Positions 9,934 to 54,162 of a DNA stretch of 64,000 nucleotides are shown here, one piece after another; the first letter of the stretch is position 1, and each line of letters starts with the position of its first letter. The stretch is taken from assembly GCA_044224185.1 (NCBI GenBank), contig JBGAKW010000015.1, positions 55,603 through 119,602 of the forward strand, in the 5' to 3' direction. A program made the translations under genes and the position numbers. Source of the DNA: Gemmatimonadaceae bacterium. Lineage in GTDB: Bacteria > Gemmatimonadota > Gemmatimonadetes > Gemmatimonadales > Gemmatimonadaceae. Under the pieces are notes generated by a model. That model saw only the letters and a list, made by a program, of their open reading frames with translations. It had not been told where the DNA came from and searched no databases.

Positions 9934-10281
9934 CCCGATCGAAGCGTCGCGAAGTAACACGGCATTTTCTGCCGGAAATCACCGCTGATTTCGCGTCGTC
10001 GAACCTCGCAAGTCATTCTGCCGTGACCACCTAGCGCGCGCCGCGTCGTCAGGAGTGTAACCCTGGGACGCCGCGCGCCGCTCGGCAGCTTTGGCCGCTC
10101 GCGCACCACGCGATCGATCGCGTGTCGTTTGCCGTCCCGGATTTCGTGATGAGGGAACGGAAACGTACGTGACGGCGCAGCACCGAACTCTGAGACACCG
10201 CCGATGGACGCGTCGGCGCGTTTCGCGCACCCTGGCGCGCTGTTCGGCGTTTTTATATCCGTCAGCTGCAATTCCGGCAGT

Positions 10282-10322
10282 CGCGCGCGCGCGCGTCGTT
10301 TTTTACGCGCGCGCGTTTATTA
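10282..10322 (+). promoter_or_regulatory. Alternating-GC hairpin followed by TTTATTA, 10 nt before the ATG of the HPt/GGDEF gene (terminator/attenuator-like)
   Basis: cgcgcgcgcgcgcg - tcgtttttta - cgcgcgcgcg - tttatta is read directly. Confidence 0.4.
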
Positions 10323-10332
10323 CAGGCGCGCC

Positions 10333-12381
10333 ATGACCTCGCCCCCGCGCCCCCCCGAAGTGGCGTCACCAGCCTCGTTGTTAGGCGCGCAGGGGGCGGA
10401 GCTCTGGGCGCGATCACTCGAGCGCCACACGCGCCGCGTCGAGGTCCTCGAGCGCGCGGTGCTCGCGCTCATGGACGGTGAACTCGACAACGAGCTGCGC
10501 GAACTCGCCGAGTCGGAGGCGCACCTCCTCGCCGGCTCCATCGGATCGTTTGGGCTTCGCGCCGGCTCGCGCCTCGCCCGCGCGCTGGAGCAGTCGTTCG
10601 GCGCCCCGCACACGTTAGGCAGGGTCTTCGCCGCTCGCCTCGCCGATCAGGTCCTTGCGCTCCGCCGGGAGTTGGAGCGCCCGCTGGTCCTCGACGCCGG
10701 CGCCGCCCTCGGCGCCGAACACCGCCGGCTCCTGCTCATCTCCGACGACGCCGAACGCGCCGAGCAGTACGTGGCGGAGGGAGTCGCGTTAGGGTACGCG
10801 CTGACCATTCACTCGGTGCGAAATGCCGCTCGCGTCATCGCCGAGCTGCCTAACGACGCACGTCCTCATGCCGTGGTCGTCGAACTCTCGGAAGCCACGT
10901 GCGACGAGGGCATCGCACTCCTCGGCGAGATCGAACGCCTGCGCGGTACGCTACCGACGCTCGTCGTCTCCGCCGTCGACGGCATGGCACTGCGACTGGC
11001 CATCGCGCGCTCGCAAGCCACCGGGCCGCTCGCCCTCTCGCACGCGCCATCGGACGTCCTGCAGCGCGCCACGCCACTCCTCGACGTCCAGCACACGCTC
11101 CAAGGCTCGATTCTCGTGGTCGACACCGATCCGTGGGCGCTGGAATCGACGCGCCTAACGCTGGAGCACGAAGGACACACGGTGCACACGCTCCCCGACC
11201 CGATGCGCTTCTGGGAAACGCTCGAATCTGTCGCTCCCGATCTCGTCATCTCGGGCATCGCGATGACGTCGCTCTCCGGGCTCGACTTGTGCCGCGCCAT
11301 GCGCGCCGATCCGCGCTGGCGCGAACTCCCGCTCATTTTCGTCGCCGCCACCGACGACGCGCCGTTCGTTCGTGACGCATATCTCGCCGGTGCCGATGAC
11401 GTCGTCCGCAAACCGGTCGAGATGCGCGAACTCGCCACGCGCGTCGGGAATCGCATGCGCCGTTCGCGATTACTGCGCCGTCACGCCGAAGCCGACGTCC
11501 TCACCGGTCTTGCCAATCGCCGCAAGGCTGAGCGCGACCTCGATCGCTTTCTGCGCCTCGCGCGTCGCCATCGCCACCAGGTCTCGCTCGCGTTGTTCCG
11601 CATCGATCGCTTCGAGCACGTCACCGAGTTGCACGGCCAGGGCGCCGCCGATCACGCCGCGCGGTGGTTCGCCCACCTCCTGCAGCAATCGTTTCGCGCC
11701 GAGGATATCGTCTCGCGATGGAGCGCGGACGACTTCGTCGTCGGTCTGTTCGATGCGGGAAGTGACGATGCGGTCGCGCGCGTGCGCGAAGTCATGGCGG
11801 CGCTCCGTGACGAACGCTTCACCGCGCCCAACGGTGATTCGTTCGCGCTGACCTGCAGCGCCGGCGTTGCCACGTTTCCCGACGACGCGGCCGACCCGGT
11901 TTCGCTCTACGCCAGCGCCGACGCCGCGTTGGTGAGCGCGCGCGTCACCATGCCCGACGACGCGTTAGGCATCGCGTCTGCGCCCCACATGCGCGTCAAT
12001 GGTCGCGTCGACGTCGTCCTCGTCGAAGACGACCCGGCGGTTGCCGCCCTCGTCATTCACGCCCTCGAATCGCGTCAATATGCCGTCCGCTGGCTGCGCG
12101 ACGGACACGAGGCTGCTGCTGCCTTGCTCGGCGAAAGCCCCGAGCTCCGCGCCCGGCTGGTGTTGCTGGAAGTCAACCTCCCTGCATTCGACGGTTTGTC
12201 CATTCTCCGCGCGCTCTCCGCGCAAGGCAAGCTGCGGCAGACGCGCGCCATCATGCTCAGCGTCCGCTCATCCGAAGCCGAAGTCGTGCAGGCCTTCGAG
12301 ATGGGAGCGTTCGACTACGTCGCCAAGCCGTTCTCCGTCTCCATCCTCGTCGAACGTATCCGGAGGGCACTCACCACATGA
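10333..12381 (+). CDS. Multidomain signalling protein: HPt, receiver-like domains, degenerate GGDEF (SADDF) with intact RxxD I-site, C-terminal receiver-like domain
   Basis: HPt signature EAHLLAGSIGSFG (His codon 10522-10524). GGDEF-domain start DVLTGLANRRKAERDL. RAED (11695-11706) lies five residues before SADDF (11722-11736). Receiver-like segments show E or G where the phospho-Asp is expected (VVVELSE, DLVISGIAMTSLSG, LVLLEVNLPAFDG). Confidence 0.85.
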   Translation: MTSPPRPPEVASPASLLGAQGAELWARSLERHTRRVEVLERAVLALMDGELDNELRELAESEAHLLAGSIGSFGLRAGSRLARALEQSFGAPHTLGRVFAARLADQVLALRRELERPLVLDAGAALGAEHRRLLLISDDAERAEQYVAEGVALGYALTIHSVRNAARVIAELPNDARPHAVVVELSEATCDEGIALLGEIERLRGTLPTLVVSAVDGMALRLAIARSQATGPLALSHAPSDVLQRATPLLDVQHTLQGSILVVDTDPWALESTRLTLEHEGHTVHTLPDPMRFWETLESVAPDLVISGIAMTSLSGLDLCRAMRADPRWRELPLIFVAATDDAPFVRDAYLAGADDVVRKPVEMRELATRVGNRMRRSRLLRRHAEADVLTGLANRRKAERDLDRFLRLARRHRHQVSLALFRIDRFEHVTELHGQGAADHAARWFAHLLQQSFRAEDIVSRWSADDFVVGLFDAGSDDAVARVREVMAALRDERFTAPNGDSFALTCSAGVATFPDDAADPVSLYASADAALVSARVTMPDDALGIASAPHMRVNGRVDVVLVEDDPAVAALVIHALESRQYAVRWLRDGHEAAAALLGESPELRARLVLLEVNLPAFDGLSILRALSAQGKLRQTRAIMLSVRSSEAEVVQAFEMGAFDYVAKPFSVSILVERIRRALTT

Positions 12382-42852: not shown

Positions 42853-43371
42853 TCAAATCGCTTTCTTTAGTGCTGCCTCGATGTCCTGGTCGCCCCCAGC
42901 CCCGGCGTAGACGATCTTTCCCGCCTTGTTGACGACAATCACGGTGGACGTCGCCTTGACGCCATAGACCTCGTCGGCTTCACCTAAACGATCATAGTAG
43001 GTCTCGATGTCGAAGCCGTGCTTCTCCATGTGCAGCTTGACGCGCTGGGGCGACTGATTGAACGAGACAGCGAGGCCGACAAATTTCACCTGCGAGCCGT
43101 ACTTCTTCTTGGCGGCGATGACCTTGGGGGCCAGCGCTTCGCAGTTCTCGCACCACGTCGCCCACACCTCGATGAACATCGGAGTCTTGCCGATGTACTG
43201 GGCGAGCGACGCCGGCTTTCCGTCGAGCGTCTCGACCTTCAGGTCCGGGAGTTGAGCGCCGATAGGAAGATCGATGGCTTTTTGCGCGCGCGCGAGCGAG
43301 GGAACGAATGCCACCGCGGCGATAATGACGCCCAGAGACAAACGACGGCGTGCCGGTGTGCCTAACGTCAT
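42853..43371 (-). CDS. TlpA/ResA-like periplasmic thiol:disulfide oxidoreductase
   Basis: WATWCENC CxxC motif and a signal peptide. The ATG at 43371 overlaps the ccdA stop (ATGA). Confidence 0.8.
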   Translation of the reverse strand: MTLGTPARRRLSLGVIIAAVAFVPSLARAQKAIDLPIGAQLPDLKVETLDGKPASLAQYIGKTPMFIEVWATWCENCEALAPKVIAAKKKYGSQVKFVGLAVSFNQSPQRVKLHMEKHGFDIETYYDRLGEADEVYGVKATSTVIVVNKAGKIVYAGAGGDQDIEAALKKAI

Positions 43372-44096
43372 ATCAGCAGTTGTCCCATCTTGATGAGGTA
43401 ATACTCGGCCACGGCGAGCATCAGGAAGCCGAACGCCTTCTTGACGCGAAGCATCCAGACCCCGGCCCGCGGAAGTCGCGAAAGCGCCCCGGATGATACC
43501 CCGACGATCACCAGCAGGGCGCACATCCCAAGGGAAAAGACGAACAAATAGATGAAGCCCAGAGCGGCGCTTTTCGTTTCACTCACCCAGGTAAGGACGG
43601 CGATCATGACTGGTGCCGAGCACGGTGCCGCGACCAGGCCCGACATCGCGCCCATCACGAACGTCCCCCCGAAACGCCCCCCTTCGCCCGCCGTCGAGGC
43701 GCGTTGCACGAGCGCGGTGGGGAGGCGGACTGGAATGACGTCGAACATCGAGAGGGCGGCGATGACGAGGAGGTTCGCCATCCCGAAGTACAACCACGGG
43801 TTGGTGCTGATGCGCCCGAACATCGTCCCGGTGAGTCCGGCAAAGAGGCCGAGCGCAGCGTAGACGAGCGCGAGTCCGAGGACGTAGGTGAGGGAGAGAA
43901 GCAAAGGCCGCAGCCGTCGCTGCGTTCCTCCCGCGGCAGACGCGTTGGCCTCGCCACCGCCGACGATCGCCGCGGTGATCGGGATCATCGGGTAGATGCA
44001 GGGCGTGAGCGACGTCAGGACTCCTGCAAAGAAGAGGAGTGGTAGCGCCGAGAGGGGGGAGCCGGAGAGGCGGCTCGTGATCGACGAGAAATCCAT
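43368..44096 (-). CDS. ccdA: Cytochrome c biogenesis protein CcdA (DsbD transmembrane-domain family)
   Basis: Six TM helices with LTPCIYPMIP and a second Cys in VAAPCSAPV. Confidence 0.85.
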   Translation of the reverse strand: MDFSSITSRLSGSPLSALPLLFFAGVLTSLTPCIYPMIPITAAIVGGGEANASAAGGTQRRLRPLLLSLTYVLGLALVYAALGLFAGLTGTMFGRISTNPWLYFGMANLLVIAALSMFDVIPVRLPTALVQRASTAGEGGRFGGTFVMGAMSGLVAAPCSAPVMIAVLTWVSETKSAALGFIYLFVFSLGMCALLVIVGVSSGALSRLPRAGVWMLRVKKAFGFLMLAVAEYYLIKMGQLLI

Positions 44097-44190
44097 ACGT
44101 GGGGTGAAGGATATCGTCGGGGGAGGTGTCGCGCTGGAAGTGCGAGGAGTTAATTCGCACGATCTCGAAAAGAGATGCCCAGGGGGTGAG

Positions 44191-45810
44191 ATGGAGTCGA
44201 AGAGAGTTTCGCGCTGCGTGGCTGTGGACTGGTCAGGGGCGATTGAACGCGCTGAGAAAAGGATATGGCTCGCTCGAGTGCAGTCTGGTGTGGTGGAGCA
44301 ACTGGAGTGCGAGCGCGATCGCCAAAGTGTCGCAGACTATCTCATCACCCAAGCGCGAGTCGAACCCGATGTCATCGTTGGCCTCGACTTCGCCTTCTCT
44401 CTTCCGCAATGGTTCTTAGATGAGCGCGGCTTGTCGTCGGCACACGAGCTTTGGGCTCTTGCTGCGTCGGAGGGCGAAGGATGGCTATCCGATTGCAGCC
44501 CGCCGTTCTGGGGACGTCCTGGAAAGATGCGCCCATCGTTGCCTTCGCACTTCCGCCGCGCTGACGCCGAGGTACCGCCGATAGGTGGGATCAAACCAAA
44601 ATCAGTTTTTCAGATTGGCGGAGCGGGCGCGGTCGGCACCGGCTCATTGCGGGGAATGCCGATCTTGCGTCAACTGCGAGACGCTGGCTTCGCGATCTGG
44701 CCGTTTGATGAAGTCGGAAGGTCTACCGTCATCGAGATCTACCCACGTCTCCTCACTGGCGCGGTGGCGAAGTCGAGCGCTAGCGCGCGATGCGAGTATC
44801 TGGAGTCGCGATATCCCAACCTTGAGAGTCGCTTTCGGCAGTTAGGCGAGTCGTCAGAGGATGCATTCGATGCACTCGTGTCGGCTCTCGTGATGGACGA
44901 GAATCGTGCAGCGTTCTCGAATCTTCCCGTCGCACGCGACGACCAAGACCGAAAGGAGGGTAGGATCTGGTTCCCGATGAAGCGCCAACAGGGAGAGGTT
45001 AGACGCGAAAAAATTGCGTCCGCACTAAGGTTGGTGAGCGACACAGTAGTTGCGCCTACGGCCGTTCACATGAGCGCCACAGGGGTTCGACTTTTCGAAG
45101 ATTTTCGCGACAACCTCGTGGTGGATCGCTTTGATCCGCAGCTGGCCAAGATGAGCGGTGCAAAGCGCAACGCCCTGCGCAGCGAGAACAGCGAAGATGC
45201 GTTGACGTGGAATGCGTTTCGGGCTCTCCGGCGCGCAGATCCCAAACTGTGGATTCCGCAATTGTCGCGTCGAACGTTTGAAGGCAATGAGCTGGAAGTA
45301 GAGGGTGATTCCGAGCTTCACCTATGGAATAAAGTGGAACCTCCACCTTCTCTGAGGCGCGTTCAAAGAGATGAAGGGGCGATCGAGATCGACGTGATCG
45401 TAGAAACCGACACGTGGGTGTGGATGATCGAAGCGAAGCTGCACAGCGACATTAGTCTCATCACGACGAACAGCAATTCGCGTGACCAGCTTCTGCGGAA
45501 CTTGGACGTCGGAACGTACTACGCTGGCGTGCGACGCTTCTACTTCTCGTTCCTTACACTGGGCGGTGAGCACTCCCCGGTTGGAAATGCTCGCCTTGAA
45601 GTGTACCGACGGAATTTGGGTGGTATTCGCGACGCGCTTCGTCATCGCGCCGATCGACTTCCGAATCTGGCCCAGATCGGGAGTCTCACGTGGATGGATA
45701 TTCGCGACGTGCTTCGCGATGTCGCTCGACAGTCGCCCCACGAGGATGCGAGTGTTGCGGCAGTTCTCGCTTTGACGTGGATGGACGACAAGATCTCAAA
45801 AGATGAGTGA
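44191..45810 (+). CDS. Fusion protein: N-terminal DUF429-like (RNase H-fold) domain plus C-terminal PD-(D/E)xK nuclease-like domain. Candidate defence nuclease.
   Basis: The ATG at 44191 follows GGGGGTGAG. N-terminal part: AVDWSGA, IVGLDFAFSLP, VIEIYPRL, SEDAFDALVSALV. C-terminal part: EDALTWNAF ... IEIDVIVETDTWVWMIEAKL (D 45391-45393, E-x-K 45430-45438). GC is visibly lower than in the flanks. Confidence 0.6.
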   Translation: MESKRVSRCVAVDWSGAIERAEKRIWLARVQSGVVEQLECERDRQSVADYLITQARVEPDVIVGLDFAFSLPQWFLDERGLSSAHELWALAASEGEGWLSDCSPPFWGRPGKMRPSLPSHFRRADAEVPPIGGIKPKSVFQIGGAGAVGTGSLRGMPILRQLRDAGFAIWPFDEVGRSTVIEIYPRLLTGAVAKSSASARCEYLESRYPNLESRFRQLGESSEDAFDALVSALVMDENRAAFSNLPVARDDQDRKEGRIWFPMKRQQGEVRREKIASALRLVSDTVVAPTAVHMSATGVRLFEDFRDNLVVDRFDPQLAKMSGAKRNALRSENSEDALTWNAFRALRRADPKLWIPQLSRRTFEGNELEVEGDSELHLWNKVEPPPSLRRVQRDEGAIEIDVIVETDTWVWMIEAKLHSDISLITTNSNSRDQLLRNLDVGTYYAGVRRFYFSFLTLGGEHSPVGNARLEVYRRNLGGIRDALRHRADRLPNLAQIGSLTWMDIRDVLRDVARQSPHEDASVAAVLALTWMDDKISKDE

Positions 45811-45878
45811 CAACGACCGCTTGATGTGCTTGTAGCACGCGCTCATTTTCGCCCCGTGCTGCGATCCACCCTTATTCG

Positions 45879-48794
45879 GTGACCACTCCCGAGGCGCGCG
45901 CTCGTCAAAAGATCGATGCCCAACTGGCTCAAGCGGGTTGGGTCGTTCAAGACATGGACGCGCTCAACATCACTGCCGGACGTGGAATCGCGATCCGCGA
46001 ATTTCCCCTCGCGCGGGGCTTTGGCTTCGCTGACTACCTCCTCTACGTCGACCAAAAGGCGGTGGGTGTCGTCGAAGCGAAGCGAGAAGGGACGCCTCTC
46101 GTCGAGGTAGAGATTCAGTCTGAGAAGTACGGCGCAGGCGTACCCACGGGCATCGATGCGCCCGTGCGCCCATTGCCATTTCTGTACGAGAGCACAGGCG
46201 TCGAGACGCGCTTTACCAACCGGCTTGATCCTACTCCAAAGAGTCGCGACGTTTTTTCATTCCATCGCCCCGAGACTCTCGCTTCGTGGATTGAAGCCGA
46301 GCCGCTCTGGCTTCCGAGTGTGAAGGGCTCGCCTGATCCGCGATCACAGCGTCCCTCCACTTTTCGGTCTCGGCTCACGGCGATGCCATCGGTCGATGAG
46401 CGCGGACTCTGGCCAGCACAAGTCGATGCAGTGCGGAGGCTTGAAGTATCACTCGCGCACGATCGTCCGCGCGCACTCATTCAGATGGCGACAGGGAGTG
46501 GCAAGACGTGGACGGCGGTGAGCAGCATCTACCGACTGTTGAAGTTCGGTGGCGCGCGGAAGGTGTTGTTCCTCGTCGATCGCGCAAACCTCGCACGGCA
46601 GGCGCTAAAGGAGTTCCAGAGCTATCGCACGCCTGACGACGGCCGTCTGTTTACGGAGCTCTACAACGTCCAACGCCTAACGAGCAATCGCTTGGATCCC
46701 GTCGCAAACGTTGTGATCGGGACGGTGCAGCGGTTGTACTCGATGCTCAAGGGCGAAGCGGAACTCGCGGAAGACGCCGACGAAGCGACGGCGGGTGATG
46801 TCGCTGTCGCGTTAGGTGGACTTGAGGCGCTTCGTCGAGACCCGCTCCCGGTGGTGTACAGTGGCGAGCTGCCGATTGAGCTGTTCGATGTTGTGTTTGT
46901 GGACGAAGCGCATCGCAGCATCTACACCTTGTGGCGCCAGGTGGTGGAATACTGGGATGCGTTCCTTGTCGGTCTCACCGCGACGCCTTCCAAGCTGACG
47001 TACGGATTCTTTCAGGGAAACCTCGTGGCCGAGTATGGGCATGAGGAGGCGGTAGCTGACGGTGTGAATGTCGACTTCGACGTGTACCGCATTCGCACGC
47101 AAATCACGGAGCAGGGTTCGATCGTCGAGGCGGGACAGTGGGTCGACAAGCGCGATCGCGAGACGCGCGCAAAGCGTTGGGAGCGATTGGACGAGGAGCT
47201 GAGCTACGACGCGAACGCGCTTGACCGCGATGTGGTGGCGCCGGACCAGATTCGCACGGTGGTACGCGCTTTCCGCGACAAGTTCCTCCCCGATGTCTTT
47301 CACGAGCGTACGACGATTCCCAAGACGCTCGTGTTCGCGAAGGACGACAGCCACGCTGACGACATCGTCAAGCTTCTCCGTGACGAACTATCGTTAGGCA
47401 ATGATGGCGTGCAGAAGATCACATACAAAACGGGAACAGCGCGCATTGTCGAGCATGTGCCTGGGCCAAATGGCAGCGAGATAGAGCGCGTCACCTACAA
47501 GTCGAGCGGTGTGAAGCCGGAGGATTTGCTGCAGAGCTTTCGCAACTCGTACAATCCCCGCATTGCGGTGACGGTCGACATGATTGCGACGGGGACTGAT
47601 GTGAAACCGCTCGAAGTGCTCTGGTTTATGCGCACCGTGAAAAGTCGCACGCTCTTTGAGCAGATGAAGGGAAGGGGCGTCCGCGTCATCAAGCCCGATG
47701 ATTTGAAAGGTGTTACGCCCGACGCAACGTCAAAAACACGATTCGTCATTGTCGACTGTGTCGGCGTGAGCGAAGAAGAGTTCTCCGATACGCGCCCGCT
47801 CGATCGTCAGCCGACCGTGTCGCTCGAACGGCTCCTGCAGGCAGTGGCAATAGGCAACGTCGATCCGGACGTTGCCTCCACGCTCGCTTCTCGTTTGGCG
47901 CGACTCGACCGGCAACTTGGCCGCGACGAACACGCGAGTGTTGCGGATGCAACTGGTGGTTTGGGGTTGCGAGACATCACCCATAAAATCGTGGACGCCC
48001 TCGACCCAGATCGTCAGATCGGCGAGGCCAAAGCGCTTTTTGGTGTGCGCGCAGGCGGCGAGTCGGACGATCGCCAGATCATCGACGCTCGCTCGGCGCT
48101 CATTCGTGCGGCGATGGCGCCGCTGGCGAGCAATCCGCAGCTGCGGCAGCGGCTCGTGGATCTTAAACGATCGAAGGAGCAGGTGATCGACATCGTGAGT
48201 CGCGACGTCTTGCTCGGCGCCTCATTGTCGGCCGAAGCGCGCGAGCGCGCGGCGGCGTTGACCACCAGCTTCGAGCACTTTCTGGCATCACACCGTGAGG
48301 AATTCGTGGCGTTGCAGTTGATGTATGGAAGCGCGGCCGGGCGGCGCCTAACGCGGAGTGCTGTGCAGGAGCTGGCCGATACGCTTGCGGCGCAGAAGCC
48401 GCCATTGGCACTCGCCGATGTGTGGCAGGCTTACCAGACGCTCGACCAGGGGAGAGTGCGCGGCGCGCCGGCGAAGATCTTGACTGATGTTGTGTCGCTC
48501 GTGCGGTTCGCGCTGCAGCGTGATGCTGAGTTGGCGCCGTTTCCCAAAGTGGCGCGCGAGCGTTATGCGGCGTGGTTGGCCAAGATTGAATCGGGCGGTC
48601 GTCGGTTCAATCGCGACCAGGCGATGTGGCTCGATGCGATTGTCGATCATTTAGCCGCGAATTTGGAGATTGCAGCTGACGACTTTGAGTATCCACCGTT
48701 CGCGCAGCGTGGTGGGTTGGGGGCGGCGTATCGGGTGTTTGGGAAGGAGTTGACGAGTGTGTTGGATGAGGTGACAGGGGTGGTGGCGGCGTGA
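45879..48794 (+). CDS. hsdR: Type I restriction enzyme R subunit (HsdR)
   Basis: N-terminal nuclease region QKIDAQLAQAGW...ADYLLY...VVEAK. Helicase motifs QMATGSGKTW, VDEAHRS, and GLTATPS. Long helical C-terminal domain. Confidence 0.9.
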   Translation: MTTPEARARQKIDAQLAQAGWVVQDMDALNITAGRGIAIREFPLARGFGFADYLLYVDQKAVGVVEAKREGTPLVEVEIQSEKYGAGVPTGIDAPVRPLPFLYESTGVETRFTNRLDPTPKSRDVFSFHRPETLASWIEAEPLWLPSVKGSPDPRSQRPSTFRSRLTAMPSVDERGLWPAQVDAVRRLEVSLAHDRPRALIQMATGSGKTWTAVSSIYRLLKFGGARKVLFLVDRANLARQALKEFQSYRTPDDGRLFTELYNVQRLTSNRLDPVANVVIGTVQRLYSMLKGEAELAEDADEATAGDVAVALGGLEALRRDPLPVVYSGELPIELFDVVFVDEAHRSIYTLWRQVVEYWDAFLVGLTATPSKLTYGFFQGNLVAEYGHEEAVADGVNVDFDVYRIRTQITEQGSIVEAGQWVDKRDRETRAKRWERLDEELSYDANALDRDVVAPDQIRTVVRAFRDKFLPDVFHERTTIPKTLVFAKDDSHADDIVKLLRDELSLGNDGVQKITYKTGTARIVEHVPGPNGSEIERVTYKSSGVKPEDLLQSFRNSYNPRIAVTVDMIATGTDVKPLEVLWFMRTVKSRTLFEQMKGRGVRVIKPDDLKGVTPDATSKTRFVIVDCVGVSEEEFSDTRPLDRQPTVSLERLLQAVAIGNVDPDVASTLASRLARLDRQLGRDEHASVADATGGLGLRDITHKIVDALDPDRQIGEAKALFGVRAGGESDDRQIIDARSALIRAAMAPLASNPQLRQRLVDLKRSKEQVIDIVSRDVLLGASLSAEARERAAALTTSFEHFLASHREEFVALQLMYGSAAGRRLTRSAVQELADTLAAQKPPLALADVWQAYQTLDQGRVRGAPAKILTDVVSLVRFALQRDAELAPFPKVARERYAAWLAKIESGGRRFNRDQAMWLDAIVDHLAANLEIAADDFEYPPFAQRGGLGAAYRVFGKELTSVLDEVTGVVAA

Positions 48795-50143
48795 GAGCGC
48801 TCGATTTACCCGATCTCCGCCGAGGCTGGGCGTGGAGTACCGTTGAGGAAGTCGGAGAAGTGCAACTTGGTCGGCAGCGCTCGCCAAGGCATCACGCCGG
48901 AACGCATATGCGGCCCTACTTGCGTGTCGCCAACGTGTACGAGGATCGCATCGACACGAGTGACGTCGCGGAAATGAACTTCACGCCCGCGGAGTTCGAG
49001 AGGTATGCACTTACCGTCGGCGATGTCCTATTGAACGAGGGCCAAAGTCTCGAACTCGTTGGGAGACCCGCTTTGTATCGAGGTGAGGTCGAAGGAGCAT
49101 GCTTCCAAAATACGTTGGTGCGATTTCGGGCAGGTAAGGCAGTGCTTCCGAAGTTTGCTCTTCTCGTCTTCCGAAGCTATTTGCATAACCAACGTTTTCA
49201 GCGGATTGCGCGGTGGACGACAAACATTGCGCACTTAGGTGCGGAACGCTTTGCGAAGTTAGAGTTCCCTGTTCCTCCGATCCCCGAACAGCGGCGTATA
49301 GTAGCCGCGCTTGAGGAGCGCCTGTCGGAGCTTGATGCGGCAGTGGCGGGGTTGGAGCGGGCGCGGGCGAATGCTGGAAGAGTCGCGCTCGCAATCCGCA
49401 ATTCGGTACTTCGCGACCTGCCTACACGTGCCTTGGGAGAATTGCTGGCGGCTCCTTTGACCAACGGTCGATCCGTACCTACCGCTTCGATCGGCTTTCC
49501 TGTTCTTCGCCTGACATGCTTGAAGGCAGGTCGCGTCCTTCTCTCCGAACGAAAGATCGGCGATTGGACTGCCGCCGACGCCGCTCCATATCTCGTCAGC
49601 GAAGGCGAATTCCTTGTCTCTAGAGGAAATGGCTCGCGGTCCCTTGTCGGGCGCGGAGGACTTGTCGGTCGCGTGGAGCATCCGGTGGCATTCCCGGACA
49701 CGCTTATTCGCGTTCGGCCTGATTCCACACGTTTGCTGCCGCAGTTTCTTCGCATCGTATGGGAGAGCCGAGTCGTGAGACTCCAGATCGAGCAAGTCGC
49801 GCGTACAACGGCGGGGATCTACAAGATCAACCAGCAGGACATCGAGCGGATCCAACTAGCGTTGCCCGATTCCCTCGACAGGCAGGAGGAATTGGTGAGC
49901 GTCTTGGACGAGCAGCTTGGTGACGTTGACCGAGGCTTGAAAGCCATCGACTCGCAGCTTGCTCGCGCCGCCCGACTCCGCCAATCCATCCTGAAATCCG
50001 CCTTCGAAGGCACGCTCCTCCCGCAGGACCCTAACGACGAACCAGCATCTGTCCTGCTCGAGCGCATTCGCGCCGAACGAAAATCGTCAGCTGCAACTCC
50101 GAAACACTCTCGACGCTCAGCCGCCGTAAAGTCCAACTGCTGA
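48791..50143 (+). CDS. hsdS: Type I restriction enzyme specificity subunit (HsdS), two target-recognition domains
   Basis: GTGA overlap with hsdR. Duplicated TRD plus conserved helical spacers (PPIPEQRRIVAALEERLSELD, LPDSLDRQEELVSVLDEQLGDVD). Confidence 0.85.
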   Translation: MRALDLPDLRRGWAWSTVEEVGEVQLGRQRSPRHHAGTHMRPYLRVANVYEDRIDTSDVAEMNFTPAEFERYALTVGDVLLNEGQSLELVGRPALYRGEVEGACFQNTLVRFRAGKAVLPKFALLVFRSYLHNQRFQRIARWTTNIAHLGAERFAKLEFPVPPIPEQRRIVAALEERLSELDAAVAGLERARANAGRVALAIRNSVLRDLPTRALGELLAAPLTNGRSVPTASIGFPVLRLTCLKAGRVLLSERKIGDWTAADAAPYLVSEGEFLVSRGNGSRSLVGRGGLVGRVEHPVAFPDTLIRVRPDSTRLLPQFLRIVWESRVVRLQIEQVARTTAGIYKINQQDIERIQLALPDSLDRQEELVSVLDEQLGDVDRGLKAIDSQLARAARLRQSILKSAFEGTLLPQDPNDEPASVLLERIRAERKSSAATPKHSRRSAAVKSNC

Positions 50144-50162
50144 CACTCTCCCGCACTCCCTC

Positions 50163-51065
50163 ATGGCCGAAATCACCCGTCGTCGAACCGGAGAGCTACT
50201 TCGTGGGCTCTTCGAGATTCTCATGCAACATCCCGATGGACTACCGGCAGCGAAGGCGCTCGAACTGCTCGCGCAGAAGCTCCCACCGACGCCGTTCGAG
50301 AATGGGGATTTTGAGTCGGGCGGTCGTCGCTATGAGAAAATCGTCCGGTGGGGAACGGTCGATTGCGTGAAGGCCGAGTGGCTCATCAAAGCGCACGGTC
50401 GGTGGACGATTACAGACGAAGGAAAGAAGGCGTACGCTGCGTACCCTGACGACGAGGCGTTCTATAAACGCGCCGTCTTCTTGTATCACGAGTGGCGGAA
50501 GAGCACGCCGCCGAAAGAGACGAGTGGTGGAGTCAGCGCCGCTCCCATCGAATCGGACGCGGACGCCAAGGAGGCCAGCATCACTTTCGAGGAAGCCGAC
50601 GAACAAGCCTGGACCGAAATCGAGAAGCACCTAACGACGATGCCGCCGTACGATTTCCAGAACCTCGTAGCGTCGCTGCTCCGCGGCATGGGCTACTACG
50701 TCGGATGGATTGCTCCCCCTGGCAAGGACGGCGGCATCGACATCACCGCTTTCAACGACCCACTCGGCACGCGCCCACCGCGCATCAAAGTCCAGGTCAA
50801 GCGACAACAGAACAAAGTCGCTGTCGATGGCCTTCGTTCGTTCATGGCGTTGTTAGGCACAGATGATGTCGGGATCTTCGTGAATGCCGGTGGCTTCACG
50901 AGAGACGCCGAGGATGAGGCGCGCACGCAGCCGTCGCGCCGGGTGACGTTGGTGGACCTCGAGCGGCTGGTCGATCTGTGGACCGAGCACTATCACAAGA
51001 TCGACGACAAGGACAAGCGGAGGCTGCCACTCGTGCCGATCTACTTCCTGGCGCCTGAGGGATAG
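50163..51065 (+). CDS. Mrr-like restriction endonuclease (Mrr_N winged helix plus Mrr catalytic domain)
   Basis: N-terminal wHTH (YEKIVRWGTVDCVKAEWLIKAHGRWTITDEG). Catalytic core FQNLVASLLRGMGY...GKDGGIDITAF...IKVQVKRQ. Confidence 0.8.
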   Translation: MAEITRRRTGELLRGLFEILMQHPDGLPAAKALELLAQKLPPTPFENGDFESGGRRYEKIVRWGTVDCVKAEWLIKAHGRWTITDEGKKAYAAYPDDEAFYKRAVFLYHEWRKSTPPKETSGGVSAAPIESDADAKEASITFEEADEQAWTEIEKHLTTMPPYDFQNLVASLLRGMGYYVGWIAPPGKDGGIDITAFNDPLGTRPPRIKVQVKRQQNKVAVDGLRSFMALLGTDDVGIFVNAGGFTRDAEDEARTQPSRRVTLVDLERLVDLWTEHYHKIDDKDKRRLPLVPIYFLAPEG

Positions 51066-51070
51066 GAGAG

Positions 51071-51814
51071 ATGACCCTCACCTACGGCGACTACATCGTC
51101 TTCGTGGACGAAAGTGGTGATCACGGCCTGCAGTCAATCGATCCGCACTATCCCATCTTCGTCCTCGCGTTTGCCGTCTTTGCGAAGCACGACTACGCAA
51201 ACGTCTGCGTACCGGATCTCCTTCAATTCAAGTTCCGGTACTTCGGCCACGCTCAGACGATTCTTCACGAGCACGACATCAAGAAAGCCAAAGGACCATT
51301 TCGCATCCTCGTGGACTCATCACGACGTGCGTCCTTTCTGGCTGATCTAGGTTCGTTGATCGAACGAGTTCCTTTCACGCTTGTTGCCGTCGCTATTCAC
51401 AAGGCAGCGCTCAAGGAGAAGTACATCACGCCGAGCAATCCGTATGCGTTAGCGATGGAGTACGGGCTCGAGCGAGTCTGCGCGCTTCTCGAGGAAAAGG
51501 GGCAGACGGGACGACTCACTCACGTGATCTTCGAGTGCAGGGGCAGAAAGGAGGATCTCGAGTTGGAGGTGGAGTTCCGTCGAGTCACCGGAGGGGGAAA
51601 CGCCACGTGCAGCCGGGTCCCGCTCGAAATCGTGATGACAGACAAAAAATCAGTGTCGGCAGGACTCGAGATAGCCGATCTCGTCGCGCGGCCCATCGGG
51701 CTTCACGTGCTTCGTCCGGAACAACCGAATCGCACGTGGCCGGTCATCGAGCCGAAGTTTCGACGTGGGCGAAATGGCCGCTTGGACGGAATCGGTCTAA
51801 AGTGCTTCCCCTAA
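51071..51814 (+). CDS. DUF3800-family protein
   Basis: YIVFVDESGDHGL N-terminal signature, and LEIADLVARPIG near the C-terminus. RBS AGGAGAG. Only 5 nt after the mrr stop. Confidence 0.7.
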   Translation: MTLTYGDYIVFVDESGDHGLQSIDPHYPIFVLAFAVFAKHDYANVCVPDLLQFKFRYFGHAQTILHEHDIKKAKGPFRILVDSSRRASFLADLGSLIERVPFTLVAVAIHKAALKEKYITPSNPYALAMEYGLERVCALLEEKGQTGRLTHVIFECRGRKEDLELEVEFRRVTGGGNATCSRVPLEIVMTDKKSVSAGLEIADLVARPIGLHVLRPEQPNRTWPVIEPKFRRGRNGRLDGIGLKCFP

Positions 51815-51931
51815 CGCGCCTGAAAACGGAAGCGCCGGCCCTCGAGGATTCCCCCGAAGCCCGGCGCCGACCAGGATTCCCCAGTCCATTTGTACTCGAA
51901 TGATAGTTTTGCGGGACCCGAAGTCAACCGA

Positions 51932-51991
51932 CTCCAGCGGTCTCCAGCGGTCTCCAGCGGTCTCCAGCGGTCTCCAGCGGTCTCCAGCGGT
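51932..51991. repeat. Six perfect tandem copies of the 10-bp unit CTCCAGCGGT
   Basis: Read directly. Intergenic, between the DUF3800 stop (51814) and the HTH gene start (52072). Confidence 0.95.
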
Positions 51992-52009
51992 CTCCAGCGG
52001 TTCGCAACG
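51991..52009. promoter_or_regulatory. Palindrome TTCGCAA-cgatc-TTGCGAA immediately after the 10-bp repeat tract
   Basis: Read directly. Lies 63 nt upstream of the GTG at 52072. Confidence 0.4.
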
Positions 52010-52071
52010 ATCTTGCGAATGTTTCGATTGTTGCGTCTATTTCGTTTGGGACATTTGGCGGATAAGCGATC

Positions 52072-52527
52072 GTGAGCGCGACTCTCCAACTTCCGACGAC
52101 TGAAGAATCAGACGAGGCAAACCAAGCGCTGCGAGTCCTGACGCGACTGGCTACCGCTCGTGCCAAGAAGCACGTCCGTCTCCAAACGGATGGGCGCGAT
52201 GCGCGTACAATCATCGTACCTCGCAGAGCATTCAATCTGTTTCTTGAGGTTCTCGGGCAGATGGCAAGCGGCAACGCGGTCACGATTGTCCCCGTGCGCT
52301 CCGAGTTGACGACGCAGCAAGCGGCTGACCTTCTCAACGTCTCTCGTCCCCATCTGGTGTCTTTGCTCGAACGCGGCGAGCTCACCTATCGGAAGGTTGG
52401 CACGCATCGTCGCGTTCTCTTTACCGACCTCCAAGCATACAAGCGCAGCCACGATGCGAGTTCGCGCGACGCAGTCGCGGAGGTCACCCGACAGTCGCAG
52501 GAACTCGGGCTCGACGCGGAGTCCTGA
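52072..52527 (+). CDS. Excisionase-family (MerR-like) helix-turn-helix DNA-binding protein
   Basis: LTTQQAADLLNVSRPHLVSLLERGELTYRKVGTHRRVLFTDLQAY. GTG start. Confidence 0.65.
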   Translation: MSATLQLPTTEESDEANQALRVLTRLATARAKKHVRLQTDGRDARTIIVPRRAFNLFLEVLGQMASGNAVTIVPVRSELTTQQAADLLNVSRPHLVSLLERGELTYRKVGTHRRVLFTDLQAYKRSHDASSRDAVAEVTRQSQELGLDAES

Positions 52528-52594
52528 TGGTTTGCCTCGAGCATGAGCTACTCAGCGGTGCTCGCCCGCTGTGCCTAACGTGGATTGAGATTGA

Positions 52595-54100
52595 ATGACC
52601 GCACAACAAATCGTCGCGAAGCTCTGGAATTACTGCAACGTTCTGCGAGATGACGGGCTTTCGTACGGAGACTACGTAGAGCAGCTCACGTATCTCCTCT
52701 TCCTCAAAATGGCCCATGAACGCACGCAGGCTCCGTGGTCGCAAGCTTCAATCATTCCGCGCGGCTTCGACTGGCCAGCACTCCTCACGAAGGAAGGTGA
52801 CGCACTCGAGACGCAGTACCGGCACACCCTCGAGCGACTCGGCCGCGAGCCTGGAATGCTCGGGCTCATCTTCAGAAAAGCGCAGAACAAAATTCAGGAC
52901 CCTTCAAAGTTGCGCCGACTCATCGCTGACCTGATTGATCGCGAAGAATGGGTGTCTCTCGACGCGGACGTAAAAGGAGATGCGTACGAGGGGCTTCTCG
53001 AGAAGAACGCGCAGGATACAAAGGGCGGAGCAGGACAGTACTTCACACCACGTGCGCTCATTCAGGCAATCGTCGCGTGCATTTCGCCGCGACCGGGTGA
53101 GACGATCTGTGATCCTGCATGTGGTACAGGCGGATTTCTACTCGCGGCACACGACTACATCGTCGGCGAAAACAAAACACTCGATAAAAAGGCGAAGAAG
53201 CACCTAAAGCTCGAAGCACTCCACGGTGTAGAGCTCGTAGACGGTGTGGCGCGTTTGTGCGCGATGAACCTTCTCCTTCACGGAATCGGCCCGACCGCAG
53301 GAGAACAATCAGAGCCAGCGGTGACGGCTGACGACGCACTTCGTGCCGATCCCGGAGACCGCTTCGACGTAATTCTCACCAATCCACCGTTCGGTCGGAA
53401 ATCGAGCGTACGAATGGTGAACGCCGAGGGTGACGAAGAGCGACAGGATCTCACGGTGGTGCGGGACGATTTCTGGACCAGCACGGGCAACAAGCAACTC
53501 GCCTTCGTGCAGCACGTAAAGACGCTCCTGAAAATCGGCGGGCGCGCGGCGGTCGTAGTGCCCGACAACGTCTTATTTGAGGGTGGCGCTGGCGAAATCG
53601 TTAGGCGGAAGTTGCTGCACGAATGCGATGTGCACACCATGCTGCGTCTTCCAACTGGCATCTTCTACGCCCAGGGTGTGAAAGCCAACGTGCTCTTCTT
53701 CGATCGTCGCGCCGCGAGCCAAGCTCCGCAAACGAAGAAGTTGTGGATCTACGATCTTCGGACAAATGAGCACTTTACCCTGAAGACGAATCCGCTGAAG
53801 CGCGCGGCTCTCGACGAGTTCGTGAACTGCTACAATCCCTCCAACCGGCATGTCCGGAAGGCGACGTGGAGCGAGATGAAGTCGCCTGATGGACGGTGGC
53901 GAGCGTACGACTATGCGGAGTTGGTTGCGCGGGACAAAGCTTCGCTCGACGTATTTTGGCTTCGAGACGAAGCGCTCGAGGCTTCGGCAAATCTTCCCGC
54001 TCCCGAACTGATCGCGGCCGAAATTGTTGAGGATCTGCGCGCTGCGCTGGAAGCGTTCGAGGGCCTTGAGAGTGCACTGGCGGCGAGGGGAAAGACGTAA
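52595..54100 (+). CDS. hsdM: Type I restriction-modification N6-adenine DNA methyltransferase subunit (HsdM)
   Basis: HsdM_N-like LWNYCNVLRDDGLSYGDYVEQLTYLLFLK, motif I ICDPACGTGGFLL, and motif IV ILTNPPFG. Confidence 0.9.
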   Translation: MTAQQIVAKLWNYCNVLRDDGLSYGDYVEQLTYLLFLKMAHERTQAPWSQASIIPRGFDWPALLTKEGDALETQYRHTLERLGREPGMLGLIFRKAQNKIQDPSKLRRLIADLIDREEWVSLDADVKGDAYEGLLEKNAQDTKGGAGQYFTPRALIQAIVACISPRPGETICDPACGTGGFLLAAHDYIVGENKTLDKKAKKHLKLEALHGVELVDGVARLCAMNLLLHGIGPTAGEQSEPAVTADDALRADPGDRFDVILTNPPFGRKSSVRMVNAEGDEERQDLTVVRDDFWTSTGNKQLAFVQHVKTLLKIGGRAAVVVPDNVLFEGGAGEIVRRKLLHECDVHTMLRLPTGIFYAQGVKANVLFFDRRAASQAPQTKKLWIYDLRTNEHFTLKTNPLKRAALDEFVNCYNPSNRHVRKATWSEMKSPDGRWRAYDYAELVARDKASLDVFWLRDEALEASANLPAPELIAAEIVEDLRAALEAFEGLESALAARGKT

Positions 54101-54127: not shown

Positions 54128-54162
54128 AAAGAGGTGGAATCAAAGTCCGATTCCACCTCTTT
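54128..54162. terminator. Perfect 14-bp hairpin after hsdM (aaagaggtggaatc - aaagtcc - gattccacctcttt) with flanking A/T runs. Probable bidirectional intrinsic terminator.
   Basis: Read directly. It lies between the convergent hsdM (+) and ADOP permease (-) genes. Confidence 0.65.

Follow-up and report, generated by a model that had tools for sequence, protein, structure and literature searches.

Proteins of the DUF429 family have been grouped with RuvC, RuvX and YqgF in clade D of the RNase H-like superfamily, and the fusions recorded for them in that survey were to NUDIX and RelA/SpoT domains only, with no fusion to a PD-(D/E)xK nuclease (Majorek et al. 2014, PMC3985635). The only DUF429 protein with a measured activity is RelZ of Mycobacterium smegmatis (also called RnhD or MS_RHII-RSD; MSMEG_5849), which hydrolyses RNA:DNA hybrids and R-loops, and does so only as the full-length two-domain protein (PMC5224475, PMC7591505). 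Here, a gene is described that encodes a protein of 539 amino acids (aa) in which a divergent DUF429-like domain is predicted to be joined to a PD-(D/E)xK nuclease domain. The gene lies in a stretch of 64,000 nucleotides from a Gemmatimonadaceae bacterium (assembly GCA_044224185.1, contig JBGAKW010000015.1, positions 55,603 to 119,602), referred to below as the window, where it stands at the head of a restriction-modification (R-M) island. The two-nuclease architecture is found mainly among R-M and other anti-phage genes, and the proposal that the gene is a host-borne, stand-alone dual-nuclease defence effector in a horizontally acquired defence island is, in our judgement, evenly balanced between being right and being wrong.

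Like DUF429 (PF04250; COG2410, COG4328, COG4923), the N-terminal half of the protein has a predicted RNase H-like fold, the same order of motifs, and acidic residues on strand 1, strand 4 and the C-terminal helix; unlike DUF429, it scores below the cut-off of the family and carries an insert that is invariant in its own clade, PPFWGRPG ... KSVFQIGGAGAVGTGS. The likeness to RelZ/RnhD lies in the two-domain layout with the DUF429-type domain at the N-terminus, while the C-terminal domain of RelZ is a (p)ppGpp synthetase rather than a nuclease, and RelZ is tied to replication stress, not to defence islands. As the models and alignments show, one chain carries two unrelated predicted nuclease folds, each with a complete and strictly conserved set of residues of catalytic type. 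A preliminary description of the gene, made from the sequence, had assigned its halves to a DUF429 (RNase H-fold) domain and a PD-(D/E)xK domain, and both assignments hold because of the models, the structure matches and the conserved residues.

For the N-terminal domain, the AlphaFold2 model built from 26 sequences reached a predicted local distance difference test score (pLDDT) of 94.9 and a predicted template modelling score of 0.92, with an RNase H-like order of strands and helices (strands at residues 8-13, 26-31, 34-39, 61-65 and 178-183; helix at 223-237). Its top Foldseek matches in the PDB were RuvX, a phage terminase nuclease, a retroviral integrase core, Tex and YqgF, all of them RNase H-like, at weak E-values of 0.025 to 0.2 (best 0.025). 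The fold class of the domain as modelled is clear, namely RNase H-like without a close solved relative. In profile searches, the full-length protein had no match to DUF429 in Pfam at E <= 1, and the isolated N-domain scored 16.7 bits (E 0.0064) against PF04250, under the gathering cut-off of 23 bits. DUF429 was matched at E <= 0.01 by seven of the 26 close relatives (best 5.2e-06), and the cut-off is cleared by some close relatives and, with 27.8 bits, by a more distant fusion protein, P0372. Conservation was computed over 336 distinct relatives, and the putative catalytic residues D13, D66, E182, D224 and D227 are conserved in at least 96% of these sequences (counts for each residue are given in Table 1). 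The domain also contains a conserved insert made up of PPFWGRPG (104-111) and KSVFQIGGAGAVGTGSLRG (137-155), the clade-invariant elements of which are PPFWGRPG, R122 and KSVFQIGGAGAVGTGSxRG.

The AlphaFold2 model of the C-terminal domain reached a pLDDT of 91.6, and nearly all of its best 50 Foldseek matches in the PDB were PD-(D/E)xK nucleases (best E 0.0045), including R2 endonuclease, AF1548, Can2, Cap4, VC1899, McrC, MGME1, Bax1 and Cdn1. In BFVD, the domain matched viral proteins whose annotation is PD-(D/E)XK or restriction endonuclease; three matches reached E <= 0.001, and one of the three carries the PD-(D/E)XK annotation. The core had been read in the preliminary description as D-x13-E-x-K; the motif is indeed present, with the spacing corrected to D401-x12-E414-x-K416. 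Among the relatives of this domain, D401 and K416 are kept in 124/124 and E414 in 123/124, and E395, E399, Q433, R436 and D439 are likewise invariant in about 124 sequences. E335, which belongs to an acidic pair ahead of the core, is conserved together with D401, E414 and K416 at about 99% among 125 C-domain sequences.

This conserved core belongs to no named family. The C-domain has no match in Pfam, NCBIfam or PADLOC, and the form in the window matched zero Pfam families at E <= 0.1. Its relatives gave only weak matches to NERD, DUF4143, REase-ARP and UPF0102 (best 0.003-0.004), and for membership of the window domain in Mrr_cat, NERD, DUF4143, REase-ARP or UPF0102 no significant Pfam match was found. 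A sequence search of solved structures, conducted with the whole protein and with both domain profiles, returned nothing significant. Two whole-protein matches, one to GerPB (Pfam/NCBIfam) and a partial one to PRK14495, a fusion of MobB with an unknown domain, were discarded as noise.

The gene is an uninterrupted open reading frame (ORF) whose stop-free translation gives 539 aa on the plus strand, as the preliminary description had it, and all of the motifs quoted there are found at the claimed sites (Table 1). The protein occurs in identical form on five public contigs with the same neighbours, and the public gene calls also give 539 aa. The frame is open already from an ATG at 43996, from which the gene would run into a DsbD-type gene of opposite direction (43368-44096, minus strand). 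The start at ATG 44191 is preferable because of this overlap, the N-termini of homologues, which lie 8-10 residues ahead of the DWSG motif, the Shine-Dalgarno-like element GGGGGTGA and the public calls. The 68-nt gap to hsdR claimed earlier stands if hsdR starts at GTG 45879, and does not if the later public start, which gives a 946-aa HsdR, is used.

The N-domain clade is present in at least 388 GTDB species representatives, with 50-60% identity across Gemmatimonadota, Planctomycetota, Acidimicrobiia, Chloroflexota, Nitrospirota and other phyla. Its members occur alone or joined at either end to HIT/DcpS_C, NUDIX, HD/SpoT-type hydrolase or MazG-like domains, and further fusion partners are ADP-ribosylglycohydrolase (ARH)-phosphatase, DUF4160, HEPN, methyltransferase, peptidase and zinc-ribbon domains. 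The nuclease half falls into two families, v1 (the form in the window) and v2, which are sisters with the same invariant core and reciprocal hidden Markov model (HMM) matches. Both are mostly stand-alone, unannotated proteins of about 250 aa, with 118 matches for v1 and 859 for v2, and the sample contains seven fusions of the N-domain to v1 and 31 to v2. The N-domain is thus joined to both sister families, and the nuclease partnership is recurrent; clustering by N-domain identity did not separate one origin of the fusion from two (v1 and v2). Within the clade the partnership is uncommon, being seen in only two of the 80 best GTDB loci, both v2. Among the 1.84 billion representatives of a library at 50% identity, the full-length architecture is covered by P0021 (v2), by the window protein (v1), by a truncated v2 form and by P0372, which combines a canonical DUF429 domain with v2, so that the window protein is the sole 50%-identity representative of the v1 fusion.

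The neighbourhoods of eight nuclease-fusion loci were compared within 10 kb. Type I R-M, Mrr and DUF3800 genes surround the gene in the window, and L016 (v2) has HsdS, HsdM, HsdR, DUF4209 and DUF4357. Type III R-M, an NmeDI-type enzyme, HEPN, GIY-YIG and SNIPE are found at L008, two Dam methylases, AlwI, AIPR, a helicase and Mrr at L096, and a large helicase, MZB, a C5 methylase and Vsr, in a DISARM-like arrangement, at the P0033 locus. R-M or DISARM-like genes therefore lie within 10 kb at 5/8 loci. A sixth locus, L094 (v2), has nuclease-helicases, namely a PLD-helicase (DUF3427) and an HNH-helicase, while the v1 loci L003 and L001 carry repair-type genes, described below, and YbjN, a PUA-like protein and Fic, respectively. 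As a control, a panel of 20 defence proteins taken from the fusion loci matched only two of 77 loci of non-nuclease N-domain members, which corresponds to a rough Fisher p of 3e-5 (5/8 vs 2/77) between groups annotated by different methods, the controls by the cruder one. In a like-for-like PADLOC census of 110 neighbours each, 317 families were matched at the fusion loci, among them the methylase, endonuclease and specificity subunits of Type I systems, mREase_IV, PDC-S02 and mad5, as against 53 at the matched control, where the matches were mostly single and of housekeeping type. By both comparisons, the homologues of the fusion are enriched near defence genes, an association that had been suggested for checking when the gene was first described.

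No partner gene accompanies the fusion: a search across seven fusion loci found none conserved, the only recurrence being a PUA-like protein at two loci, and the small flanking ORFs of the fusion loci are mutually unrelated and without a Pfam match. A split version, with a stand-alone nuclease beside a stand-alone DUF429-like gene, was not seen at L005, L007, L097 or L098-L100. Neither domain was confirmed on the viral contigs of IMG/VR (2.9 million), and this lack of confirmed relatives speaks against a phage-encoded nuclease or anti-defence gene.

In the window, the gene opens a block of low GC content (44191-54100, GC 0.591) flanked on both sides by sequence at 0.627. The gene itself has a GC of 0.577 and its C-domain half 0.558. 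The earlier statement that it lies in the lowest-GC part of the island is right in that the GC is low, and wrong in that it is not uniquely lowest, since hsdM is equal at 0.577 and the DUF3800 gene is lower at 0.567. The genes downstream follow the order hsdR-hsdS-mrr-DUF3800-HTH-hsdM, where HTH denotes a helix-turn-helix ORF, and mrr and DUF3800 lie inside a split Type I operon (50163-51814); therefore, the island stacks several restriction activities. The HTH_17 ORF hints at present or past mobility of the R-M island, and neither a tRNA nor convincing flanking direct repeats were found at its boundaries. A scan of the gap between the 539-aa gene and hsdR for promoters and terminators gave one weak hairpin, within chance expectation.

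Two further elements of the island were observed. A 10-nt tandem repeat, CAGCGGTCTC, present in about eight copies (51925-52004) in the gap that separates the DUF3800 gene from the HTH_17 ORF and hsdM, could be slippage-prone and affect the expression of hsdM or the HTH ORF (phase variation), or could simply be intergenic. A perfect 14-bp inverted repeat with a 7-nt loop (54128-54162), located after the hsdM stop and before a convergent MacB/FtsX gene, is probably a bidirectional terminator marking the right edge of the low-GC island.

Table 1. Positions of the features of the two-domain protein, its gene and the adjoining restriction island (window coordinates, or protein residues where so marked)
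Feature	Position	Strand	Details
Shine-Dalgarno-like GGGGGTGA	44182..44189	+	just 5' of ATG 44191; read from sequence
Gene for 539-aa two-domain protein	44191..45810	+	stop codon included; 539 codons, uninterrupted ORF
N-terminal RNase H-like domain (predicted), divergent DUF429 branch	44191..44985	+	residues 1-265
AVDWSGA	residues 11-17		N-domain motif
D13 codon, putative catalytic Asp	44227..44229	+	strand 1 (8-13), AVDWSG; D in 324/325 aligned relatives
GLDFAFSLP	residues 64-72		N-domain motif
D66 codon, putative catalytic Asp	44386..44388	+	strand 4 (61-65), GLDFAFS; D in 332/333
EIYPRL	residues 182-187		N-domain motif
E182 codon, putative catalytic Glu	44734..44736	+	strand 5 (178-183), VIEIYPR; E in 336/336
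EDAFDALVSALV	residues 223-234		N-domain motif
D224-D227 codons, putative catalytic Asp	44860..44871	+	C-terminal helix (223-237), EDAFDA; D224 320/333, D227 332/333
Linker, poorly conserved	44986..45057	+	residues ~266-289; variable, gapped in alignment; pLDDT 64-75 at start of C-domain model
C-terminal PD-(D/E)xK nuclease domain (predicted), variant v1	45058..45795	+	residues ~290-535; v1 HMM covers 290-535
EDALTWNAF	residues 335-343		C-domain motif
E335-D336 codons, acidic pair ahead of core	45193..45198	+	helix SENSEDALTWN (66-78 of model); E335 123/124, D336 124/124
AIEIDVIVETDTWVWMIEAKLHSD	residues 397-420		C-domain core motif
Core D401-x12-E414-x-K416	45391..45438	+	adjacent strands 129-136 and 140-146 of C-domain model
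hsdR (ResIII, EcoEI_R_C)	45879..48794	+	start uncertain
hsdS	48791..50143	+
Mrr-type (Type IV) restriction endonuclease	50163..51065	+
DUF3800 protein	51071..51814	+
HTH_17 (excisionase/AlpA-like) ORF, 151 aa	52072-52527	+	between DUF3800 gene and hsdM
hsdM	52595..54100	+	right end of low-GC island

Several other arrangements of the two domain families were observed in the wider sample. At ten loci from Gemmatimonadota-type and other genomes (L027, L030, L031, L039, L042, L044, L047, L048, L064 and L075; e.g. L039:9980-12258), a DUF429-like-HIT gene overlaps the next gene, which encodes an HNH endonuclease of some 359 aa, and the pair looks like a conserved, undescribed two-gene module. A NUDIX-DUF429-like fusion (L010-L013, gene 10001-11233) lies 50 nt 3' of an operon for a Btu/Fec-type ABC transporter and a TonB-dependent receptor on many contigs, a setting outside defence for the same N-domain. 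An ARH plus PTP-type phosphatase protein (L003:8271-9767) is encoded directly upstream of a v1 fusion, and the same ARH and PTP-type pair is fused to a DUF429-like domain in 860-aa proteins (P0017, P0066), which suggests that the N-domain clade is functionally linked to ADP-ribose or phosphate end chemistry.

On the nuclease side, P0343 carries a v2 nuclease fused to an N-terminal domain judged by eye to be of ASCH/PUA type, and PUA-like (PF24405) proteins with 60% mutual identity adjoin a v1 fusion (L001:1133-2296) and a v2 fusion (L094:11592-12782); these PUA/ASCH associations may link the nuclease family to the reading of modified bases. Some v1 nucleases of about 400 aa (P0159, P0179, P0226, P0228, P0232, P0235) have an extra C-terminal region of about 150 aa without a Pfam match, and some of these proteins come from Bacillaceae (e.g. 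Litchfieldia, Neobacillus). The stand-alone v2 nuclease P0462 (L098-L100; L098:8001-8783) was seen on at least 24 contigs; at L098-L100 its gene precedes a type III-A CRISPR-Cas operon by about 1.6 kb and adjoins a gene for a trypsin-like protease, and L100 also has Nmad2 and Nmad3 genes nearby. Another stand-alone v2 gene is carried by a Rep_1/SLT mobile element, where its neighbours are UvrD and PDDEXK genes.

The preliminary description had offered either a stand-alone defence effector or an R-M accessory nuclease, and the varied defence neighbours favour the former, while a dedicated accessory of Type I systems is not supported as a general rule, with such systems adjacent in only 2/8 loci (the window and L016). 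A defence role for the 539-aa protein is credible, and the evidence for it is entirely one of association. Several points weigh against it. Taken as a whole, the N-domain family has no link to defence: its non-nuclease members sit in lineage-conserved, housekeeping-like settings, for example beside Pirin or branched-chain amino-acid ABC transporters, and are mostly fused to nucleotide hydrolases, and therefore the core job of the clade may be neither defence nor DNA cutting. Nuclease activity in this clade is a prediction, with RelZ/RnhD as the only precedent, and because the structural matches of both domains are weak, what they establish is fold class only. The sample of fusion loci is small, and the control comparison carries the mismatch of annotation methods given with it. 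Two of the loci (L003, L094) look more like DNA repair, and the two stand-alone v1 genes that were examined have unremarkable contexts, one of them adjoining a PIN toxin pair.

The repair-like loci are the natural starting point for the view that the protein is a host DNA repair or recombination nuclease processing stalled forks, R-loops or damaged ends, with the R-M vicinity either incidental or reflecting repair of restriction damage. AddAB-like helicase-nucleases, NucS, SbcD and the ARH-phosphatase gene directly upstream are found at L003, and AddAB-like genes, WYL/PafBC-type regulators and an overlapping Exo_endo_phos gene at L094; the sister architectures with domains of end-healing type (HIT/DcpS_C, NUDIX, HD, ARH-PTP) and the tie of RelZ to UV and R-loop stress point the same way. 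Such a role is nevertheless unlikely, given that 5/8 fusion loci are clear R-M or DISARM-type islands, that the 539-aa gene lies within a low-GC acquired island, and that the fusion occurs rarely and patchily (about 3-4 clusters in the library at 50% identity), unlike a core repair enzyme. The immediate surroundings in the window bring a different function to mind, that of an accessory dedicated to the neighbouring Type I R-M system, sharing a transcript with hsdR and serving, for example, DNA degradation after HsdR action or restriction alleviation. The same orientation of hsdR 68 nt downstream, the scan that gave no convincing terminator or promoter in the gap, and the second, independent fusion (L016, v2) just downstream of another Type I system are consistent with this function. 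It is nonetheless improbable, because the remaining loci have Type II, Type III, DISARM-like or no R-M genes, the two Type I systems differ in HsdR family and have the fusion gene on opposite sides, and no partner gene is conserved across loci.

The N-domain might also be no nuclease at all, acting instead as a nucleotide- or ligand-binding regulator that gates the PD-(D/E)xK domain in the way that Can2, Card1 and Cap4 are gated by CARF and SAVED domains. In favour of this are Can2, Cap4, VC1899 and Cdn1 among the structural neighbours of the C-domain, an invariant N-domain insert rich in glycine (GGAGAVGTGS) and accompanied by conserved Arg and Lys, the nucleotide-acting domains to which the N-domain is usually fused (HIT, NUDIX, HD/SpoT-like, MazG, ARH), and one stand-alone v2 nuclease located beside a type III-A CRISPR-Cas locus. 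Set against this are the nearly invariant acidic residues at the canonical catalytic positions of the RNase H fold (strands 1, 4 and 5 and the C-terminal helix), the RNase H activity measured for one DUF429 protein, and the finding that no cyclase or other signal-producing gene is conserved near the fusions, so that gating of this kind has a fairly low probability. A toxin or addiction module, or a selfish nuclease of a mobile island with no direct anti-phage role, would agree with the Xis-like HTH_17 ORF of the low-GC island, the stand-alone v2 nuclease inside the Rep_1/SLT element, the stand-alone v1 nuclease next to the PIN toxin pair and the sister fusions to DUF4160 and HEPN domains; it is very improbable, since no conserved small partner (antitoxin) gene lies beside the fusions and the neighbouring small ORFs are unrelated to one another.

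If the 539-aa protein is a stand-alone defence effector, its PD-(D/E)xK domain would serve as a portable DNA-cutting module, as may be expected of a family whose members are also seen on their own or joined to a PUA/ASCH-like reader, and the DUF429-like domain would contribute a second active site together with the choice of substrate. By analogy with RelZ/RnhD, the latter domain may recognise and cut RNA:DNA hybrids, R-loops or branched DNA of invading replicons. The two unlike active sites might each cut one strand, as RuvC and HNH do in Cas9, resulting in a double-strand break, and the protein probably acts alone beside the Type I R-M system and Mrr rather than as their subunit. Both the substrate preference and the idea of one cut per strand are pure analogy, which again tempers the defence proposal. 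A more daring version, doubtful at present, pictures a guide-free, single-polypeptide restriction enzyme in which the DUF429-like domain, akin to RuvC/RuvX, would recognise hybrids, R-loops or branched intermediates formed as invading DNA replicates and would nick them, and the PD-(D/E)xK domain would cut the other strand; the target would then be set by nucleic-acid structure, not by sequence or methylation. The DUF429-like clade in general would, on this picture, be a constant sensing or nicking module plugged into varied effector or nucleotide-processing domains.

If the protein does defend against phages, it would represent a single-gene system built from two families without a described function, the first being the conserved DUF429-like clade of at least 388 species and the second comprising two orphan PD-(D/E)xK families that together count roughly a thousand members and are covered by no Pfam model. 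This would provide the first handle on the job of the DUF429 fold outside mycobacteria, and a compact enzyme with two unlike nuclease sites, maybe reading nucleic-acid structure, could interest tool developers. Even if the role is not defence, the combination of a constant domain with HIT, NUDIX, HD, MazG, ARH and nuclease partners offers a lead to the biochemical role of DUF429.

Among catalogued defence systems, none with such an architecture was named in the preliminary description, and PADLOC-DB 2.0 indeed has no model for it. The sole match there is a partial one of the N-domain to PDC-S44 (E 4.1e-5, residues 149-265 on profile positions 139-250 of 257), a profile also matched by 11/14 relatives; this implies that a family of related fold is already on record as a candidate for defence. 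The difference from PDC-S44 is that only the C-terminal half of the profile is matched, at a low score, and that PDC-S44 is a protein of about 257 aa without a second nuclease domain. A literature search for PDC-S44 found an incidental mention only and no published characterisation.

With Can2, Card1/VC1899, Cap4, McrC, LmuA and Mrr, defence effectors that rank among the top structural matches, the window protein shares the predicted fold class, the D...ExK beta-hairpin core and the plan of an N-terminal front end followed by a C-terminal nuclease, whereas it has no significant sequence similarity to them and lacks a CARF or SAVED sensor or a partner NTPase. The Type IV reader-nucleases with PUA, ASCH or EVE domains are approached through the sister family v2, fused to the ASCH-like domain of P0343, and through the PUA-like neighbours at two fusion loci, but the window protein itself has neither a PUA-like domain nor a PUA-like neighbour. 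Cas9 and the RRXRR proteins likewise combine a clade-D RNase H-like nuclease with an unrelated second nuclease domain; in the window protein the second nuclease is PD-(D/E)xK rather than HNH, and guide RNA, CRISPR array and recognition lobe are missing, so that the design logic alone is alike. By analogy, then, the 539-aa protein may work like other nuclease effectors of defence islands, in a design that resembles the RuvC-plus-HNH proteins.

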